Shown here: piece after piece, positions 17,113 to 24,430 of the stretch
How positions within the stretch are numbered: the first letter of the stretch is position 1
Layout of the letters: every line of letters begins with the position of its first letter
Origin: Candidatus Kapaibacterium sp.
Lineage (GTDB): Bacteria > Bacteroidota > Ignavibacteria > Kapaibacteriales > UBA2268
Direction: 5' to 3'
Assembly (NCBI GenBank): GCA_937927515.1
Contig: CALBDO010000005.1
Coordinates: forward strand, 71,665 to 135,664
Length of the DNA: 64,000 nt
Made by a program: the position numbers and the translations under genes
Notes under the pieces: generated by a model
Told to the model about the DNA's origin: nothing
Database searches by the model: none
Seen by the model: only the letters and a program-made list of their open reading frames with translations

Positions 17113-18030
17113 TCAAGAATTTCTAAAAAACTCCACTGTCAATTCTAACCCATGGTCCAAATTAATTTCTGGCTTCCAGCCAGTTAACCTCTGAAATTTT
17201 TCGTAAGACAAACAACTTCTTAGAATTTCGCCAGGTTTAGGTGGTCCATGAATTGCATCTAAATCAGAATTGATTATTCCTTTAATTTTTTTGAAAATGG
17301 TATTTACATCTGTTTCAATTCCGGTTGAAATGTTGAATATACCATTTACGTTTTCGTTCAAGGATAGTACATTTGCTCGGATGACATCTGATATGAAGAC
17401 GTAGTCTCTTGTTGCTGTTCCATCTCCATGTATAATAGGTTGCACACCTTTTAATAACTTACTGGTGAAGATTGCAACTACTCCAGCCTCTCCCTTGGGA
17501 TTTTGACGTGGGCCATAGACATTGCTGTACCTTAAAGCTACAAACTGAGTACCGTATACTTTTTGAAAGAAGGAAAGATAAAGTTCATTGGTCAATTTAG
17601 AGATACCATAAGGCGAGCAAGGGTTCAATGGATGTTCCTCGTTTGCGGGGTAGTAGATTTGTTCTCCGTATACTGTTCCACCAGATGAAGCAAAAATAAT
17701 TTTTTTTACCTTGGAACGAACAGCACTATTGTATAATCTTACACTACCGAGTATGTTGGTTTGGGCATCGAAGACTGGGTTGTCCACCGAGATTCGAACA
17801 TCAATTTGCGCTGCATGGTGATTGATAACATCGAAGTTTCTTTTTTCTATAATTGTGGAGATTTCAGGGTCATTAATATCTAATTTGAGGAATTCTGCTT
17901 TGGGGTTTACATTTGAAATATCGCCAGTGGAAAGGTTATCAACAACAGTTACATTGTGCCCAAGTGAGATATATGCATCGACAATATGCGACCCAATAAA
18001 TCCGGCACCTCCTGTGACAAGTATGTTCAT
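17113..18030 (-). CDS. NAD-dependent epimerase/dehydratase (UDP-sugar 4-epimerase-like)
   Basis: N-terminal TGGAGFIGSH; catalytic YxxxK (YGISK); 305 aa. Confidence 0.85.
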   Translation of the reverse strand: MNILVTGGAGFIGSHIVDAYISLGHNVTVVDNLSTGDISNVNPKAEFLKLDINDPEISTIIEKRNFDVINHHAAQIDVRISVDNPVFDAQTNILGSVRLYNSAVRSKVKKIIFASSGGTVYGEQIYYPANEEHPLNPCSPYGISKLTNELYLSFFQKVYGTQFVALRYSNVYGPRQNPKGEAGVVAIFTSKLLKGVQPIIHGDGTATRDYVFISDVIRANVLSLNENVNGIFNISTGIETDVNTIFKKIKGIINSDLDAIHGPPKPGEILRSCLSYEKFQRLTGWKPEINLDHGLELTVEFFRNS

Positions 18031-19151
18031 TTTTCAACCAAGTTGGTAAAACATTTATTAAGTAAAATGTCTACAATTCGCATTGCTGCTTTTCCATCCC
18101 ATAGTGGTGGAACCCGATGCTGACGTCGTTCTCCATTTAAAATTTTTTTTACTGCTGTAATAAGTTTTTCTTTTTCGGGGTAAACCAAATAATTAGTCCC
18201 AATCTCGCAAGTTATAGGTCTTTCGGTAGAAGTTCTCATCGTAATGCAAGGAATTCCCAAATATGTTGTTTCTTCTTGAATTCCTCCAGAATCGGTTATT
18301 ACAAATTTTGAGTGCTTCATTAGTTTTACAAAGTCGATGTAGCCTAATGGTTCAGTCAAAATTAAGTTTGGAATACTTTTGAATTTCGATAGCAGATTAA
18401 ATTGTTCAATGTTTTTCCTTGTTCGAGGATGCAAAGGTAAAACTAAATGCAGGCTTTTGCAAATGTACTCAATTAGTTCAAGTATTTGTATAAGTTGAGT
18501 TTTCTCGTCTACATTGCTGGGGCGGTGCAAGGTCATTACTGCAAACTCTTTATCATTTAGTCTAAGTTTAGAAATTATATTACTTTTGTTAACTTTAGGC
18601 AAAATGTATATCAAAGAATCTATCATTGTGTTGCCAACAAAGTATACTTTTTCTGGGTCGTGCCCTTCTTTCAAGAGATTTTGGACCCCGCTTTCTTCTG
18701 TTACGAAAAGGTAATCACAAATTGAATCCGTGGCAATTCGGTTAATTTCTTCCGGCATTGTTCTGTCGAAGCTTCGTAGTCCAGCCTCGATATGTGCAGT
18801 TTTAATGCCAAGTTTTGTTGCAGTTAATGTTGCCGCAATAGTAGAGTTGACATCTCCAACGACGATAACAAGGTCCGGTTTCGCTTGGTAACAAATCTTC
18901 TCGAATTCAATCATAATTTTTCCAGTTTGCTCGCCGTGACTACCCGAGCCAACGCCTAAATAAAAGGTAGGTCGAGGTAAACCAAGGTCTTCGAAGAAAA
19001 TTTTCGACATTTCGTAGTCGTAGTGTTGCCCAGTGTGACAAATTAGATGCTCGACCTGTTCTTTATGTAATAAAAATTCTCTATGGATTGGGGCGACTTT
19101 CATAAAATTTGGTCGAGCACCAACAACGGATATTACTCTTAATTTTTTCAT
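18027..19151 (-). CDS. wecB: UDP-N-acetylglucosamine 2-epimerase (non-hydrolysing)
   Basis: 374 aa with Epimerase_2 family features (VVGARPNFMK...HTGQHYD...). It overlaps the downstream epimerase gene by 4 nt. Confidence 0.85.
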   Translation of the reverse strand: MKKLRVISVVGARPNFMKVAPIHREFLLHKEQVEHLICHTGQHYDYEMSKIFFEDLGLPRPTFYLGVGSGSHGEQTGKIMIEFEKICYQAKPDLVIVVGDVNSTIAATLTATKLGIKTAHIEAGLRSFDRTMPEEINRIATDSICDYLFVTEESGVQNLLKEGHDPEKVYFVGNTMIDSLIYILPKVNKSNIISKLRLNDKEFAVMTLHRPSNVDEKTQLIQILELIEYICKSLHLVLPLHPRTRKNIEQFNLLSKFKSIPNLILTEPLGYIDFVKLMKHSKFVITDSGGIQEETTYLGIPCITMRTSTERPITCEIGTNYLVYPEKEKLITAVKKILNGERRQHRVPPLWDGKAAMRIVDILLNKCFTNLVEK

Positions 19152-19269
19152 TAATAAATTTATTTACAAATAAAGGTACAAAATTAACTTATAATAATCA
19201 ATTAGTTTATTTGTCTTTTTTGTAGTTTTGATTGTAACATTTTTATACTTTTGATGTTATTATTTCTGA

Positions 19270-19836
19270 ATGGCTTACAATTTAGAGAAATTTAGTGATA
19301 ACGACTTATACAATTTGCTTTCAAATGGTGGTAAAGAAAGCGAATTTGCTTTTTTAGAAATATATAGGAGGTACTCTGGAAGGATTTATGCATATTGTAA
19401 AAGATTTCTTGGGAACAAAGAGGATGCTATGGATGTTTTTCAAGATACGTTTGTAAGGTTTTACCATTCCTCGAAAGAAGTGCGTCAAATGTCGAATCTT
19501 TCTGCTTTTCTTTTGAGAATAGCAAAGAACTTGTGCTTAAATTATTTAAGACAAAAGAAGCAGTCCCTCGAAGTCGAGGATTACATGTCCCATATTGATA
19601 TTGAAAATCAGAACGATACCAATGAGATGTTGAAATTAATTCATGATGCAATAAATCAGTTGCCGGATGATTATCGCGAGATTTTCATTCTTCGTGAATA
19701 TCAAGGCATGAGTTACAATGAGATTGCACAGCATTTGAATATTTCGCTTTCTTTAGTAAAGGTTCGTCTCTTTCGAGCAAAAGAAAAGCTTCGTGAAATA
19801 CTTGCTCCAGTTATTTCCGAGTTGTCTAAATTTTAA
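19270..19836 (+). CDS. ECF (sigma-70 family) RNA polymerase sigma factor
   Basis: 188 aa. Region 2 (DAMDVFQDTFVRFY) and region 4 HTH (YREIFILREYQGMSYNEIAQHLNISLSLVKVRLFRAKEKL). Confidence 0.9.
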   Translation: MAYNLEKFSDNDLYNLLSNGGKESEFAFLEIYRRYSGRIYAYCKRFLGNKEDAMDVFQDTFVRFYHSSKEVRQMSNLSAFLLRIAKNLCLNYLRQKKQSLEVEDYMSHIDIENQNDTNEMLKLIHDAINQLPDDYREIFILREYQGMSYNEIAQHLNISLSLVKVRLFRAKEKLREILAPVISELSKF

Positions 19837-19845
19837 GGAGGTTCG

Positions 19846-21033
19846 ATGGAATTAAACAAGAATTTAGAACAGATTATTGAATATTTAGATGGTGAGTTGC
19901 CAATAACAGAAGAACAAGAATTGTTCTCTGCACTGGCTAAAAGTGAGCCTTTGCGAAATGCAATGCGTGATTATTTAACTCTGTCTCGTGCAATTCATTA
20001 TGATGCCGTTTCTTTTCAACCGCCCCCAGAAGCTACAATGAACATATTTACAAAATTGGGAATTCAAAATATAGACTATTTAAACTCTCCATCTCCAAAG
20101 ACTTTCTCAAGTAAAACAAAGAAATTTGTTCTCCCAATTTTGTTTGCTTTGGTTTCTTCTTTGGGGACTTTTCTGGCAACTTATTATTTCTTTAACAAAA
20201 ATCAGCATGTTCCTTACACTTCGAGAGCAATCGTACAAGCTCCTCCAATAATTATTTCCTCTGTGCAAAATGAAAATATAAATTCCTCATTAAACACAAA
20301 TGCATTTCTTAATACCTTTCCAAATAGAAATGCAATTCAAAACTCTAACGCAGGAAATGTTTTGACTTTGCAAACCAACGATGCAAAGCCAATAGCCAGT
20401 TTGTTGGAAACGTCTCATTTTAAAGCAAATGCTTTGGGTGAAGCTACCCTCAACAAAGATGATTACTCAAATGATTTTTACCAAACAACTTTTCAACAAG
20501 ATAAAGAGATAATTAAACTTAGTATTCCCAAACCAAAGAATATTTTCTTTACCATTCGTGGCATTGTAGCAAAATCTTTTCCAGACCCAGATATCGTTCC
20601 CAAAGGAACTGAAAAGCTATTTTCAAATTTGAGTGCTGGTTTGTATTTTACACAGTGGGATAATATTAAATTTGGTATAGAATTTGGCAATGAAATTTTT
20701 GGTTTGAATTATCAAAATATGAAAGATGGTATAGAATTTACATACGAGCAAAAACCGAATTTGTACTGGGCTGCTGTTGGAGTTGATTATACTGTTCCGA
20801 AAGAACTAATGCAGATTCCAAACATTTACCCGTTTACAACAATTCTTGCTGGTGGTTCTCAGATTGGAGGTCCTTTGTTGAAAGGGTTATTTGGCTTGCG
20901 TTATAGGCCGTTCAACTCTAATTTTGAAATCTACCTTGCAACAGAGGGCACTTTATTGTTTTATCAAAATCAGAAAAAAAATTTTCTGTCCCGAAAATTC
21001 GGTTTAACTTATGGAATGTCGGTTATTTTTTAA
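19846..21033 (+). CDS. Putative membrane-anchored anti-sigma factor with a C-terminal beta-barrel-like domain
   Basis: Lies 9 bp after the sigma gene behind a GGAGG RBS. The N-terminal ~60 aa follow the anti-sigma pattern (IEYLDGELP...AMRDYL) but lack Zn ligands. One TM helix (FVLPILFALVSSLGTFLATYYFF). After an N/S/Q-rich linker the C-terminus has alternating aromatic strands ending ...LTYGMSVIF. Confidence 0.6.
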   Translation: MELNKNLEQIIEYLDGELPITEEQELFSALAKSEPLRNAMRDYLTLSRAIHYDAVSFQPPPEATMNIFTKLGIQNIDYLNSPSPKTFSSKTKKFVLPILFALVSSLGTFLATYYFFNKNQHVPYTSRAIVQAPPIIISSVQNENINSSLNTNAFLNTFPNRNAIQNSNAGNVLTLQTNDAKPIASLLETSHFKANALGEATLNKDDYSNDFYQTTFQQDKEIIKLSIPKPKNIFFTIRGIVAKSFPDPDIVPKGTEKLFSNLSAGLYFTQWDNIKFGIEFGNEIFGLNYQNMKDGIEFTYEQKPNLYWAAVGVDYTVPKELMQIPNIYPFTTILAGGSQIGGPLLKGLFGLRYRPFNSNFEIYLATEGTLLFYQNQKKNFLSRKFGLTYGMSVIF

Positions 21034-21055
21034 TTTCCACTTATTGAAAAGGATT

Positions 21056-21817
21056 ATGAAAAAGGTGTCTTCTTGGTGTGTTATCGGATTGTTTGCCTTG
21101 ATATTTCAATTTTGTACACAACCTTCTGAACTTGATGAGCCAACAAAAATATCGCCGAATGACAGAACAAAGGCGAGAATTTATCCGAACATTTATTACA
21201 TATCTATAGCTGAAAATGGAGTTGAAGATGCAGAATACCCACAATTCGAACAGAAGTTTAAAAGTAGTAAAATCGAAATATTTGTCGACACTCTGTATCC
21301 AACTCCATTGATTTGGTTTAAGGTTTATTTAGAAAGAAAAAGGTTCGAATATCACGACAAAGAATTTCAACGACTTAAAATTAAAAGTTTAAACTTTAAC
21401 ATTGATTCTTTTCCAATCTTGGGTGTGCCCTTGCCATTGAAGATGAGTAATTCGTCTAACTCCTGGTTGAAGATTAATTTAGCCAGAGGACCCAAAAACA
21501 ACTACGATACAATCATAGACCCAACGGTTGAACCCAACTACTTCGAAATTGGTTTTATTTACAACAAATCATACCGTGAAATCTGGGCAAATGGCTATGG
21601 AAAAATCTTTAGCCAGCGTTTTACTTTGTCTCAAAGGGATACAACAGTCGTCGACTCTGTCTTAAAAACTCGTTACGATACAGTTTGGATAAACAACAAT
21701 CCCCACATAAAAAAAGTTGAATATTGGGAGATAAAAGAAATAAAGTTGAAAATCGAGGAAATTACTTCATTCCCAGACTCATTAATGTTGAGTTTTAAAT
21801 TCAGATTGAAATATTAA
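21056..21817 (+). CDS. Hypothetical secreted protein or lipoprotein
   Basis: Internal ATG at 21056, with signal peptide MKKVSSWCVIGLFALIFQFC. I recognise no conserved motifs. Confidence 0.5.
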   Translation: MKKVSSWCVIGLFALIFQFCTQPSELDEPTKISPNDRTKARIYPNIYYISIAENGVEDAEYPQFEQKFKSSKIEIFVDTLYPTPLIWFKVYLERKRFEYHDKEFQRLKIKSLNFNIDSFPILGVPLPLKMSNSSNSWLKINLARGPKNNYDTIIDPTVEPNYFEIGFIYNKSYREIWANGYGKIFSQRFTLSQRDTTVVDSVLKTRYDTVWINNNPHIKKVEYWEIKEIKLKIEEITSFPDSLMLSFKFRLKY

Positions 21818-21842
21818 AGTCTATAAATTTTAAGGAGGTTGT

Positions 21843-24377
21843 ATGAGAAGAGTTTTTCTTATTCCTGTATTGGGAATATTAATTTCTTGGTTTTCTGGTT
21901 CCCTTGTTGCGCAAGTTGATGTACCAAATCCACCGCAAGGCTTGAGTATTAAAACTAATGAAAATTTGGACGGGACTTTCGACGCAAACTTATCCTGGTT
22001 CATTAATAATAACAATTTTGCTCCGTTTCCCCATGGTTTCCATATTTACCAAACAATTTTTCAAAAAAATATTGTCAGCACTCAATTACTGGATGAGATT
22101 AGCGCTAAGCAAGGCGTTTACCAGTATTCCTATGTGGTTAAGAATCTAAAACCTGGAACTTACGAATTTTACGTAACATCATTCATCGGTAAAGCCGAAA
22201 GCAGACCAAGCAACACAGTGCGGGTTGTTTTAGAAAAACACGAGCCATTCATTAAAATTATTTCTCAGCCACCAATATATGCATTTGTTGGGGTAAAATA
22301 TCTTTATCAAATTCAAGTTCATTCAAATATCAATTGTCCAATCGATGAATTTGGTTTTGATGGAACTCCACCAAAAGGAATGACCATTTCGAAAAAGGGT
22401 TTAGTTGAATGGGTTCCTCAAGATGTTGGAGAATATGAGGTGACTGTTCGTGCTGGTACCTCTTGTAAAATCAATATAGAACCAGCACGCCAGACATTCA
22501 AAATTATTGTTAACAAGCAAGGTCACAATGACCAATCATATATTAGAATTGTGAGCAAACCACCTACAAAAGGTATTGTGGGGGTGCCAATTTATTACCA
22601 AGTAGTTGCAGAGTCGAATGTTCGATCTCCTATAAAATTCAAACTTTCCGATTGCAATATGGATGGTGCTGTTATTGATGAAAACACAGGTTTACTTACT
22701 TGGTCGCCCAAAGAAGTTGGTCAATTTGGTTGTGTAGTTGTTGCATACTTATCTTGCGATACAAACATAGTTGCTATTCAAAAACTGTGCATTGAAATTC
22801 AAGCTGCTCAAGAGCATCCGAAACACTGTGTACATTTAGTTGGAAGTGCAAAATTTGCGGATGACACTCCTGTTTCAAACGGACTTGTTTATGCTTGGAA
22901 GTTAGATGCTAATGATAACCAAACCAATGTAGTTTTTAAGACATTCATAAAACATGGTGTGTTTGAATTTTATTTGCCCGTTGGTACTTATGTTTTTGAA
23001 TTTTATGGTGAAATGTTTGAACATGTGTTCTATCACAATGCAAAAAGATTTGTTGATGCTGTACGCATAAAGTTTGAATGCATCGACAACGAAACAATCG
23101 AAAAGACCCTCGAGGTCGTCCTTCCTGAAAAACCAAAACCTATTTTCTATACTGTTTCTGGTTATGTCAATTCTATGAAAGATGATGCACCCATATTAGC
23201 ACTCGTAGAGTTTATTCCTGTTGAATTTTTAAATTATCCAGAGAAGAGGATAAACTATGGAGCATTTTCGAATTTTGTTGCCAAAACAGACAAGGATGGC
23301 CATTATGAAATTCTGCTCCCAAATACATTTTCGTATATTGCTCATGCCATCCCTTTAAACAAAGAAGAATTTTATGACCAATACTATCAGCTTTCCAGTT
23401 CCCCTTATTTAGCCGACATTATTGAATTAAAAAACGATAGGGGTGATATTAATTTTCGCTTGAAACCTATTGAAAAGCCAAACAACGGTTTTACTGGAAT
23501 TGTAGTCGATAAGGATAGGAATCCAATTCAATCTCGTGTTCTGGCAATACTTGTCAGACCAAAATTCCAAAACAACATTCCAAAAGATGCTATTATTAAT
23601 GTTGTCGAAACCAATGAAAATGGTTATTTTAGGTTTGTTAATTTGATACCCGGGGATTATGTTCTTCTTTCAATTCCAAAGGATAAGCATTTTGCCCCTG
23701 GTTATTACAAAATGAATGATTTTGCAACTCTTAGTTGGAAAGAAGCTACCATTGTAACTGTCGATGATGTAATGATACAGATGATTTTCGAAATCAAACA
23801 CCGTGAGCGTCTGCAGTTGAAGGGATTAGTTAGAATTGAAGGTCAGCTTTTTGATGTAACTGGTTTAGCCAAGCAAGACAATAAACCACAATGTGATGAA
23901 ATTCCTCTGGACCAAGCACTAGTTGCCGCTATGAACATAGACGGAAACGTAATCGAATACTTTGTTACAGGTAAAGATGGAAAGTTTATTCTCGAAGAAC
24001 TTCCACCAACTACCTTTAAAATTTTTGTGACTAAAGTAGGGTATAAGGAACTTGAAGCCACTTACAGTGGCGACTATGAATCGAACTTTGCAATACGTAG
24101 TAATTTCTACCTCCAAAAAGAAGTAAGTGAAGTGCAAGAAGGAGGAGAATATGCCATAAATTTGAATGAGAATAATCTTATTCTAAGCTTTGATGATGGT
24201 CTCGAACTAAGAAATGTGCGAATTTTTGATGTGTTTGGAAATAGTTTACCTATTCAAATTTTTGCTAATGAAAAAATATTATCAATCGACATTAGTTCCT
24301 ATCCCTCTGGCGTTTACTTTGCCAATATAATTACTACTAAGGGGATTTTACAAACAAAATTTGTAATTGTTAGATAA
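21843..24377 (+). CDS. T9SS-secreted surface protein with cadherin-like (He_PIG-type) Ig domains and carboxypeptidase-regulatory-like domains
   Basis: AAGGAGG RBS and a signal peptide. Two ~65-aa Ig units matching P..G..Y.Y...P.GM.I...GL.EW.P...G.Y.V. Transthyretin-like segments (NENGYFRFVNLIPGDYVL). A canonical T9SS type-A CTD ends it (...SYPSGVYFANIITTKGILQTKFVIVR). Confidence 0.85.
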   Translation: MRRVFLIPVLGILISWFSGSLVAQVDVPNPPQGLSIKTNENLDGTFDANLSWFINNNNFAPFPHGFHIYQTIFQKNIVSTQLLDEISAKQGVYQYSYVVKNLKPGTYEFYVTSFIGKAESRPSNTVRVVLEKHEPFIKIISQPPIYAFVGVKYLYQIQVHSNINCPIDEFGFDGTPPKGMTISKKGLVEWVPQDVGEYEVTVRAGTSCKINIEPARQTFKIIVNKQGHNDQSYIRIVSKPPTKGIVGVPIYYQVVAESNVRSPIKFKLSDCNMDGAVIDENTGLLTWSPKEVGQFGCVVVAYLSCDTNIVAIQKLCIEIQAAQEHPKHCVHLVGSAKFADDTPVSNGLVYAWKLDANDNQTNVVFKTFIKHGVFEFYLPVGTYVFEFYGEMFEHVFYHNAKRFVDAVRIKFECIDNETIEKTLEVVLPEKPKPIFYTVSGYVNSMKDDAPILALVEFIPVEFLNYPEKRINYGAFSNFVAKTDKDGHYEILLPNTFSYIAHAIPLNKEEFYDQYYQLSSSPYLADIIELKNDRGDINFRLKPIEKPNNGFTGIVVDKDRNPIQSRVLAILVRPKFQNNIPKDAIINVVETNENGYFRFVNLIPGDYVLLSIPKDKHFAPGYYKMNDFATLSWKEATIVTVDDVMIQMIFEIKHRERLQLKGLVRIEGQLFDVTGLAKQDNKPQCDEIPLDQALVAAMNIDGNVIEYFVTGKDGKFILEELPPTTFKIFVTKVGYKELEATYSGDYESNFAIRSNFYLQKEVSEVQEGGEYAINLNENNLILSFDDGLELRNVRIFDVFGNSLPIQIFANEKILSIDISSYPSGVYFANIITTKGILQTKFVIVR

Positions 24378-24395
24378 AATTTATTGGTATCTTAA

Positions 24396-24430
24396 GCCCC
24401 GCTAATCTTGGCGGGGCATTTTATTCTTTG
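24396..24430 (+). terminator. Rho-independent terminator
   Basis: gccccgc-taatcttg-gcggggc hairpin followed by a T-rich run. Confidence 0.7.

Follow-up and report, generated by a model that had tools for sequence, protein, structure and literature searches.

To our knowledge, anti-sigma factors of the Dma type are the only regulators reported to join the cell exterior to the cytoplasm within one polypeptide, and they have been studied only in gut Bacteroides. The subject of this report is a candidate for a further system of this kind, encoded on a stretch of 64,000 nucleotides from Candidatus Kapaibacterium sp. (GenBank assembly GCA_937927515.1, contig CALBDO010000005.1, positions 71,665 to 135,664 of the forward strand), called the window in the following. 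The genes for an extracytoplasmic function (ECF) sigma factor, a predicted anti-sigma factor, a lipoprotein and a surface protein linked to the type IX secretion system (T9SS) lie there in direct succession. An earlier reading of the sequence alone, here named the original prediction, had proposed that the anti-sigma protein spans the whole envelope, and this proposal was supported by an uninterrupted gene, a closed-barrel model of its C-terminal domain, a beta-signal and a conserved gene order. A Dma-type trans-envelope anti-sigma mechanism at this operon was considered likely, with a probability of roughly 0.78.

In Dma1 (BT_4721) of Bacteroides thetaiotaomicron the N-terminal region binds the ECF21 sigma factor Das1 (Pardue et al., PNAS 2024, PMC10927553) and is followed by a transmembrane (TM) helix, from which a long stretch of disordered sequence leads to the C-terminal barrel, which has eight strands and the annotation OMP_b-brl_2 (PMC10927553). 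Full-length Dma1 was found in total membranes and only C-terminal fragments in outer-membrane vesicles, and the architecture is backed by fractionation and pull-down data (PMC10927553, PMC13088901, PMC9308784). The same topology was drawn in 2022 for M0N98_03760 of Phocaeicola vulgatus (PMC9308784), and a 2026 paper on Dma2 reported the same four defining parts together with a three-gene operon that includes the unknown protein BT_1557 (PMC13088901). The family comprises Dma1/Das1, Dma2 (BT_1558)/Das2, Reo/EcfO of B. fragilis and the P. vulgatus protein (PMC10927553, PMC13088901, PMC9308784), and it was stated to be restricted to Bacteroidota (PMC10927553). Its known outputs are the production of outer-membrane vesicles, polysaccharide utilization loci and O-antigen length (PMC10927553, PMC13088901, PMC9308784), none of which is implied for the operon in the window.

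The anti-sigma protein of the window resembles the Dma proteins in its predicted sigma-binding N-terminal domain, TM helix, long tether and small C-terminal barrel, and in the position of its gene directly 3' of an ECF sigma gene. Additional small genes in the operon or adjacent to it are also found on the Dma side, where BT_1557 accompanies dma2 and the lipoprotein NigD2 (BT_4719) belongs to the Dma1 regulon, and a proteolytic release model has been proposed for Dma as it is here. Unlike the Dma1 barrel with its OMP_b-brl_2 annotation, however, the barrel of the window matched no Pfam model, a comparison that was made through Pfam annotation. The hosts differ as well, being Kapaibacteria, Ignavibacteria and Melioribacter for the family of the window and Bacteroidia for Dma, and the cassette of the window adds a motif-tagged lipoprotein and a T9SS cargo protein, whereas a link to the T9SS is not mentioned in the Dma papers cited here. 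The dual-membrane anti-sigma concept is already known and was described between 2022 and 2024 in gut Bacteroides. New are a much larger barrel family of distinct sequence that occurs, often with multiple copies in a genome, in Ignavibacteria, Kapaibacteria and Melioribacter and that Pfam models fail to recognise, a recurring cassette composed of sigma factor, Dma-like anti-sigma factor, tagged lipoprotein and T9SS cargo, and a conserved GTAAC-N16-TGTTA promoter.

Architecture of the anti-sigma protein

The anti-sigma factor (ORF2, 395 aa) is encoded by an uninterrupted open reading frame (ORF) at 19846-21033 on the + strand. Twenty-three full-length homologues with 35-75% identity were found in metagenome-assembled genomes (MAGs) of Kapaibacteriota and Ignavibacteria, and the protein was conserved as a full-length single ORF in these and in more than 500 distant homologues. 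ORF2 is one gene without an unseen stop, as had been assumed in the original prediction. A fusion of an anti-sigma gene with an outer membrane protein (OMP) gene created by sequencing or assembly error was given practically no credence, because the same ORF recurred in hundreds of distant homologues and in all 23 close ones, whose assemblies are independent, and each of these proteins combines N-terminal motif, TM helix and barrel. In the alignment of the 23 close homologues the N-terminal part of about 70 aa was conserved, and the C-terminal part of about 165 aa was strongly conserved with an invariant terminal Phe. Pfam and NCBIfam scans of the full ORF2 gave no meaningful match, with none at E ≤ 1 in Pfam.

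The N-terminal cytoplasmic domain comprises residues 1-75 (19846..20070). Residues 1-93 include one His. As they contain no Cys, it is not a zinc-binding anti-sigma domain, and the lack of zinc ligands noted in the original prediction was thereby confirmed. When a profile of the first 85 residues from 35 diverse members was compared with solved structures, it matched the N-terminal domain of E. coli RseA from the complex with sigmaE (1OR7_C, E 1.5e-4), B. subtilis RsiW (5WUQ_C, E 9.4e-4) and DdvA (8RLZ, E 0.0096). Weak support came from the Pfam model RseA_N, which matched 10 of 110 family members, and among the matches listed in a profile search with 130 sequences three distant members carried the JGI label 'anti-sigma factor RsiW'. 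Residues 1-75 are by these profile matches homologous to the RseA/RsiW-like anti-sigma domains and would bind the sigma factor.

A single predicted TM helix, also in agreement with the original prediction, follows at residues ~94-116 (20125..20193), where the highest 19-residue Kyte-Doolittle window reached 2.05. The median over the family was 2.02, and values of at least 1.6 were obtained for 214 of 219 members. At residue 115 (20188-20190) the window protein has Phe and the otherwise identical protein P0001 (ERZ6863514 c_000000073432) has Tyr.

The helix is connected to the C-terminal domain by a low-complexity periplasmic tether (residues ~117-232, 20194..20541), which is variable, indel-rich and rich in N, S, T and Q and also in A and I. 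It is about 115 aa long in the window protein, and over the 219 members its length ranged from 97 to 275 aa with a median of 137 aa. As it is never shorter than 97 aa, its length fits the need to cross the periplasm. From its composition and lack of conservation the tether was judged to be intrinsically disordered. Within it, 12-20 residues past the TM helix, the sequence AIVQ(T/A)PPIII (residues 128-137, 20227-20256) was nearly invariant in the 23 close homologues, and distant members hold a looser P-[IV]-[IV]-x-S at this position. It could be a recognition site for a protease or a partner at the periplasmic face of the inner membrane.

The C-terminal domain (residues ~233-395 with the stop codon, 20542..21033) was modelled with AlphaFold2 on residues 225-395 using an alignment of 17 sequences. 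The model had a mean predicted local distance difference test score (pLDDT) of 87.7, a predicted template modelling score of 0.80 and ten sequential beta-segments according to DSSP, and its loops were mostly short. In a structure comparison the highest natural matches were Legionella porin III (15.9), NspA (15.5), OprF-N (15.3), PagL (14.6) and a Thermus OMP (14.5), followed by OmpA (14.4), OmpW (13.2) and CarO (12.6). The top 50 of an independent Foldseek search consisted almost solely of outer-membrane barrels (OmpA, Ail, NspA, OprF, OmpW, OmpX, OpcA and FadL). The sequence identity to NspA, OmpA-TM, OprF-N, PagL, OmpW and OmpX/Ail was only 8-14%, and unlike the barrel of the window these proteins have cleavable signal peptides and no tether to an inner-membrane helix. 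The C-terminus of the window protein, K-F-G-L-T-Y-G-M-S-V-I-F, fits the beta-signal of the beta-barrel assembly machinery (BAM), G390-x-x-[I/V/Y]-x-[F/Y]. In an alignment of 130 sequences G390 was kept in 98% of the members and the final residue was aromatic in 91%; in the members listed it was aromatic in 129 of 145 (F 111, Y 16, W 2). The C-terminal ~165 aa were confidently predicted to form a small closed beta-barrel of the OMP type. The original prediction was right about a beta-rich, OMP-like domain ending in GLTYGMSVIF, and only the length of about 200 aa had to be corrected to about 165 aa (residues ~230-395).

The orientation of the barrel was judged from conservation over the 130 sequences, which have a mean identity of about 20%. 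One strand face consisted of nearly invariant Gly and charged or polar residues (R238, G277, E279, G281, E283, Q302, G336, K346, G350, G365, E367, K384, G386 and G390), and the opposite face carried bulky L, I, V or F of variable identity; aromatic residues were placed at the ends of the strands. Such a combination of conserved polar and variable hydrophobic faces indicates a barrel that lies in the membrane and has a polar lumen; in a soluble barrel it would be reversed. The protein could otherwise be a conventional single-pass anti-sigma factor with a soluble periplasmic barrel of the lipocalin, avidin or YceI type as its sensor, which would never enter the outer membrane. The lack of a match to any OMP family in Pfam would be in keeping with such a sensor, and alternating polar and hydrophobic residues in the strands do not by themselves fix which face points outward. 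The conserved face, however, consists of Gly and charged residues, and a conserved hydrophobic core would give the opposite picture; the core of a barrel of 165 aa would hardly accommodate the roughly 60 large hydrophobic side chains on one face. The conservation of the terminal aromatic beta-signal and a tether of at least 97 aa, which a periplasmic sensor does not need, also argue against a soluble domain, and this explanation was considered very unlikely. A soluble beta-sandwich, the alternative named in the original prediction, was likewise not obtained, since the domain was modelled as a barrel with conservation of the membrane type.

The most conserved block of the family, G-Q-E-x-F-x-Q-x-F ... 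Y-E-Q-N-P (residues 281-304, 20686-20757), is polar and contains two short strand segments. In the DSSP assignment two strands of only 7 residues are split by F285-G286 and K303-P304, and residues ~282-304 may represent a polar beta-hairpin that extends a barrel of eight strands in the manner of OmpX, Ail and NspA. According to the model the hairpin formed by residues 281-304 may protrude past the membrane on the side of the cell surface. The indel-rich turns 317-326 and 354-359 would then face the periplasm, the reverse of the usual OMP pattern.

Several results weigh against a Dma-type barrel protein. Ten barrel-only segments gave no match to OMP families in Pfam at E ≤ 10, and among 110 members OMP_b-brl_2 was matched by none and OMP_b-brl weakly by 2. 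The search of the OMP_b-brl, PorT-like and DUF families recommended in the original prediction gave no Pfam or NCBIfam match either, and an identity of the domain with PorT-like proteins was rejected on these grounds. When the barrel profile was compared with PDB sequences, only sub-threshold matches resulted (E 0.02); they covered the final barrel strands of EspP and are suggestive at most. The model contains ten strand segments and not the eight reported for Dma1, two of them with just 7 residues, so that the strand topology is tentative. The outer-membrane location is a prediction only, with a hydrophobic belt deduced from strand periodicity. Finally, the AlphaFold2 model of the accompanying lipoprotein was unusable (pLDDT 42).

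The protein was also compared with the other signalling systems that cross the envelope. In FecA-FecR-FecI and SusC signalling, as proposed here, an outer-membrane signal controls an ECF sigma factor via an inner-membrane anti-sigma factor. FecR and DUF4974 domains gave no Pfam match, however, and a TonB-dependent receptor was absent from the operon and from the orthologous loci, so that the distinction from FecR/SusC-type signalling drawn in the original prediction was upheld. In the system of the window the outer-membrane element and the anti-sigma factor would be a single polypeptide.

The operon, its promoter, the lipoprotein and the T9SS surface protein

The four ORFs fill positions 19270-24377 on the + strand and code for 188, 395, 253 and 844 aa, with intergenic gaps of 9, 22 and 25 nt in the order ORF1 to ORF4. 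The close spacing and common strand of the four genes were as originally described. Strong ribosome-binding sites, which had been claimed for all of them, were present upstream of ORF2 and ORF4 (AAGGAGG) and of ORF3 (AAAGGA), but inspection of the sequence upstream of the sigma gene revealed no Shine-Dalgarno sequence.

ORF1 (19270..19836, +) matched the Pfam models Sigma70_r2 (1.1e-17) and Sigma70_r4_2 (3.8e-20) and the NCBIfam model TIGR02985 with 132 bits at a cut-off of 126.4; with NF058625 (sigma_PG0214) it reached 125.9 bits, slightly under the cut-off of 130. By these matches ORF1 is an ECF sigma factor. The ECF-type promoter sequence GTAAC-N16-TGTTA at 19234..19259 on the + strand is the sole site of this kind in the 64-kb window. 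Among the matches listed, 34 of the 61 unique regions 5' of cognate sigma genes contained the strict motif, compared with a mean of 0.09 after shuffling and 0 on the reverse strand, and the spacer was 16 nt in 40 of 41 loose matches. The promoter sequence ends 10 nt before the ATG of the sigma gene in the window and 8-13 nt before it in about 20 related loci. Because of this short distance and the missing Shine-Dalgarno sequence the sigma mRNA is probably leaderless or nearly so. The conservation of the promoter suggests that it is transcribed by the cognate sigma factor.

A strong intrinsic terminator with a 9-bp stem, 7 GC pairs and a T-run (24396..24417, +) is located 19 nt past the stop codon of ORF4, and no terminator-like sites were found on the + strand inside 19270-24377. 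Promoter and terminator together define one operon, predicted to be autoregulated, at 19234-24417, comprising the genes of the sigma factor, the anti-sigma factor, the lipoprotein and the T9SS surface protein. A second copy of the module was not found within the 64-kb window.

ORF3 (21056..21817, +; 253 aa from the ATG at 21056, with the frame open from 21011) gave no Pfam or NCBIfam match. It has a signal peptide that ends in an invariant Cys20 (codon 21113-21115) and is thus a lipoprotein, as had been predicted. The mature N-terminus of the lipoproteins of this module shows the motif C-x-S-P-[LM]-D-[VIL]-[DE]-[TA]-P-R, of which ORF3 has the variant C-T-Q-P-S-E-L-D-E-P (residues 20-31, 21113-21150). 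Over all loci examined the strict motif was present in 38 unique ORFs, and all 38 were located directly 3' of a Dma-like gene. It was absent from about 250 other lipoprotein-like N-termini in these loci and is specific to the module. Several kinds of domain follow the motif, namely the ORF3 type without Pfam match, VWA and HYDIN/ASH Ig-like. The export signal of Bacteroidota surface lipoproteins is C-X-K-(D/E)2-X at positions +2 to +6 of the mature protein (PMC5080379). The motif does not fit this consensus, and its interpretation as the canonical export signal was rejected.

ORF4 (21843..24377, +; 844 aa) has a signal peptide and contains a He_PIG domain (25.1 bits, cut-off 24) and a transthyretin-like CarboxypepD_reg domain (59.3 bits). 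The C-terminal sorting domain (residues ~778-844, 24174-24374) matched the T9SS type A model TIGR04183 with 30 bits at a cut-off of 23; the Pfam model Por_Secre_tail scored 24.6 bits, below its cut-off of 27. The matches to TIGR04183, He_PIG and CarboxypepD_reg agree with the T9SS-exported protein with Ig-like and transthyretin-like domains that was expected at this position.

Distribution and gene context of the family

An exhaustive profile search retrieved at least 1185 representative proteins at E ≤ 1e-3, 539 of them with E ≤ 1e-10. Nearly all members are about 400-450 aa long with the barrel at the extreme C-terminus; they have in common LDGEL...E..LF..L...ELR in the N-terminal part and a TM helix around residue 100. 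A search for loci with a degenerate DNA pattern of the last two barrel strands returned at least 119 loci, of which at least 81 in 73 species-representative assemblies were validated. Among the matches listed, 38 of 119 were false, mostly one unrelated Streptomyces gene, and none was Dma1-like. At least 7 assemblies contained 2-3 copies that passed the strict pattern. The hosts among these matches were Candidatus Kapaibacterium/Kapaibacteriota, Ignavibacteria, Melioribacter and MAGs loosely labelled 'Bacteroidota', 'Chlorobiota' or 'Bacteroidetes/Chlorobi group'. The NCBI taxonomy places Kapaibacteriota under Bacteroidota and Ignavibacteria in the separate phylum Ignavibacteriota.

The gene context was conserved. 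Among the matches listed, 58 of 60 loci had an ECF sigma gene directly 5' of the anti-sigma gene; in 58 of 72 loci an ORF started within 80 bp 3' of it (46 of these ORFs were ORF3-like by jackhmmer), and a T9SS protein with the C-terminal sorting domain was encoded within 1 kb 3' of it in 27 of 41 loci with enough flanking sequence. The order of all four genes was identical in three distant orthologous loci, so that the sequence of sigma factor, anti-sigma factor, lipoprotein and adhesin seen in the window is conserved in relatives. More distant members have the genes for sigma factor, anti-sigma factor and an unannotated protein, with or without a T9SS cargo. In Kapaibacterium sp. IP29b_bin.46 (JANQRB010000044.1, L006/L089) no sigma gene was found in the 780-bp gap 5' of the anti-sigma gene of a paralogue, and 3' of it at least four T9SS proteins with a sorting domain (He_PIG or BNR/Sortilin-type) follow in a run instead of one.

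Divergent from the operon, on the - strand at 17113-19151, lie the genes of an NAD-dependent sugar epimerase and a UDP-GlcNAc 2-epimerase-type protein (Pfam Epimerase_2). The pair is kept in the three distant orthologous loci (L001, L002 and L004) and is not found beside the paralogues (L005 and L006). The regulon of the P. vulgatus orthologue of Dma1 changes the length of the O-antigen, and the operon of the window is flanked by these sugar epimerase genes.

Several third-party annotation or MAG records that carry the cassette are titled 'uncultured Hyphomicrobiales', 'Chromatiales', 'Patescibacteria group' or 'Didemnitutus' (L007, L009, L011, L012, L030, L037, L065, L083 and others). These titles are probably placeholders or wrong labels. 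L065, for example, corresponds to the contig of L002; the anti-sigma protein that it encodes (P0014) shares 41% identity with the window protein and belongs to the 23 close homologues.

Proposed mechanism and implications

In the proposed mechanism, residues 1 to ~75 of the anti-sigma protein would bind the sigma factor and sequester it at the cytoplasmic face of the inner membrane, as suggested by the homology to RseA-N and RsiW and by the adjacent sigma gene. The single predicted TM helix would anchor the protein in the inner membrane, and the low-complexity tether, which is constrained to at least 97 residues, would cross the periplasm. The C-terminal ~165 residues would be inserted by BAM into the outer membrane as a small barrel, in line with the predicted fold, the hydrophobic exterior and the beta-signal; the location in the outer membrane is proposed by analogy with Dma1, where fractionation revealed it. 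An event in the outer membrane or at the cell surface, probably involving the co-encoded lipoprotein, would trigger proteolysis of the tether and the TM helix and free the sigma factor. The freed sigma factor would transcribe its own operon from GTAAC-N16-TGTTA and raise the amounts of the lipoprotein and the T9SS surface protein, which would place the surface protein under sigma control.

The dual-membrane protein might, however, act as an assembly checkpoint and not as a ligand sensor. In this case the barrel would be no more than a BAM substrate. Upon failed OMP assembly periplasmic proteases would degrade the unfolded C-terminal domain with its exposed aromatic end, and intramembrane cleavage would then free the sigma factor, as an in-cis counterpart of the way in which DegS and RseA of E. 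coli respond to the C-termini of unassembled OMPs. The RseA-like N-terminal domain and the conserved canonical beta-signal with its aromatic C-terminus are consistent with such a role, and homology of the N-terminal domain to RseA-N and an aromatic OMP C-terminus are features shared with the E. coli RseA-sigmaE/DegS system. The E. coli system differs in its RseA_C domain and in RseB, neither of which is part of the system of the window, where the OMP-like C-terminus belongs to the anti-sigma protein itself. The mostly short loops offer no obvious large ligand-binding surface, and the Dma papers themselves permit 'perturbations in the OM' as the signal. Several paralogous cassettes in one genome, with a separate lipoprotein and cargo for each, nevertheless fit specific inputs better than a general stress. 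The most conserved block (residues 281-304) is polar and may protrude beyond the membrane, and the module-specific lipoprotein motif suggests a dedicated partner. A checkpoint function was regarded as possible but rather unlikely.

Within the Dma-type trans-envelope mechanism, the cassette may constitute an undescribed T9SS-coupled cell-surface signalling unit. The tag of the lipoprotein would dock on the polar hairpin or the lumen of the barrel, and the C-terminal domain of the lipoprotein (ORF3-type, VWA or Ig-like) or the cargo would provide ligand specificity. This extension is tentative, and its probability was judged to be low. If it is true, the sigma factor of each paralogous cassette would be informed directly of a different surface event or of the successful display of that cassette's cargo. 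The cassettes would then be a modular trans-envelope relay in one polypeptide, expanded in Ignavibacteria and Kapaibacteria like the Sus/FecR systems in Bacteroides.

Mutagenesis can be guided by the family's more than 1000 diverse sequences, in which residues of the lumen and the hairpin are sharply conserved. The tagged lipoprotein and the T9SS cargo are named as candidate partners, and a defined promoter motif is available for mapping the regulon. With these partners and this promoter the question of what Dma proteins sense, and with whom, becomes more directly testable. The occurrence of a second barrel family in deep-branching relatives would mean that the design has an older origin or that it arose more than once.

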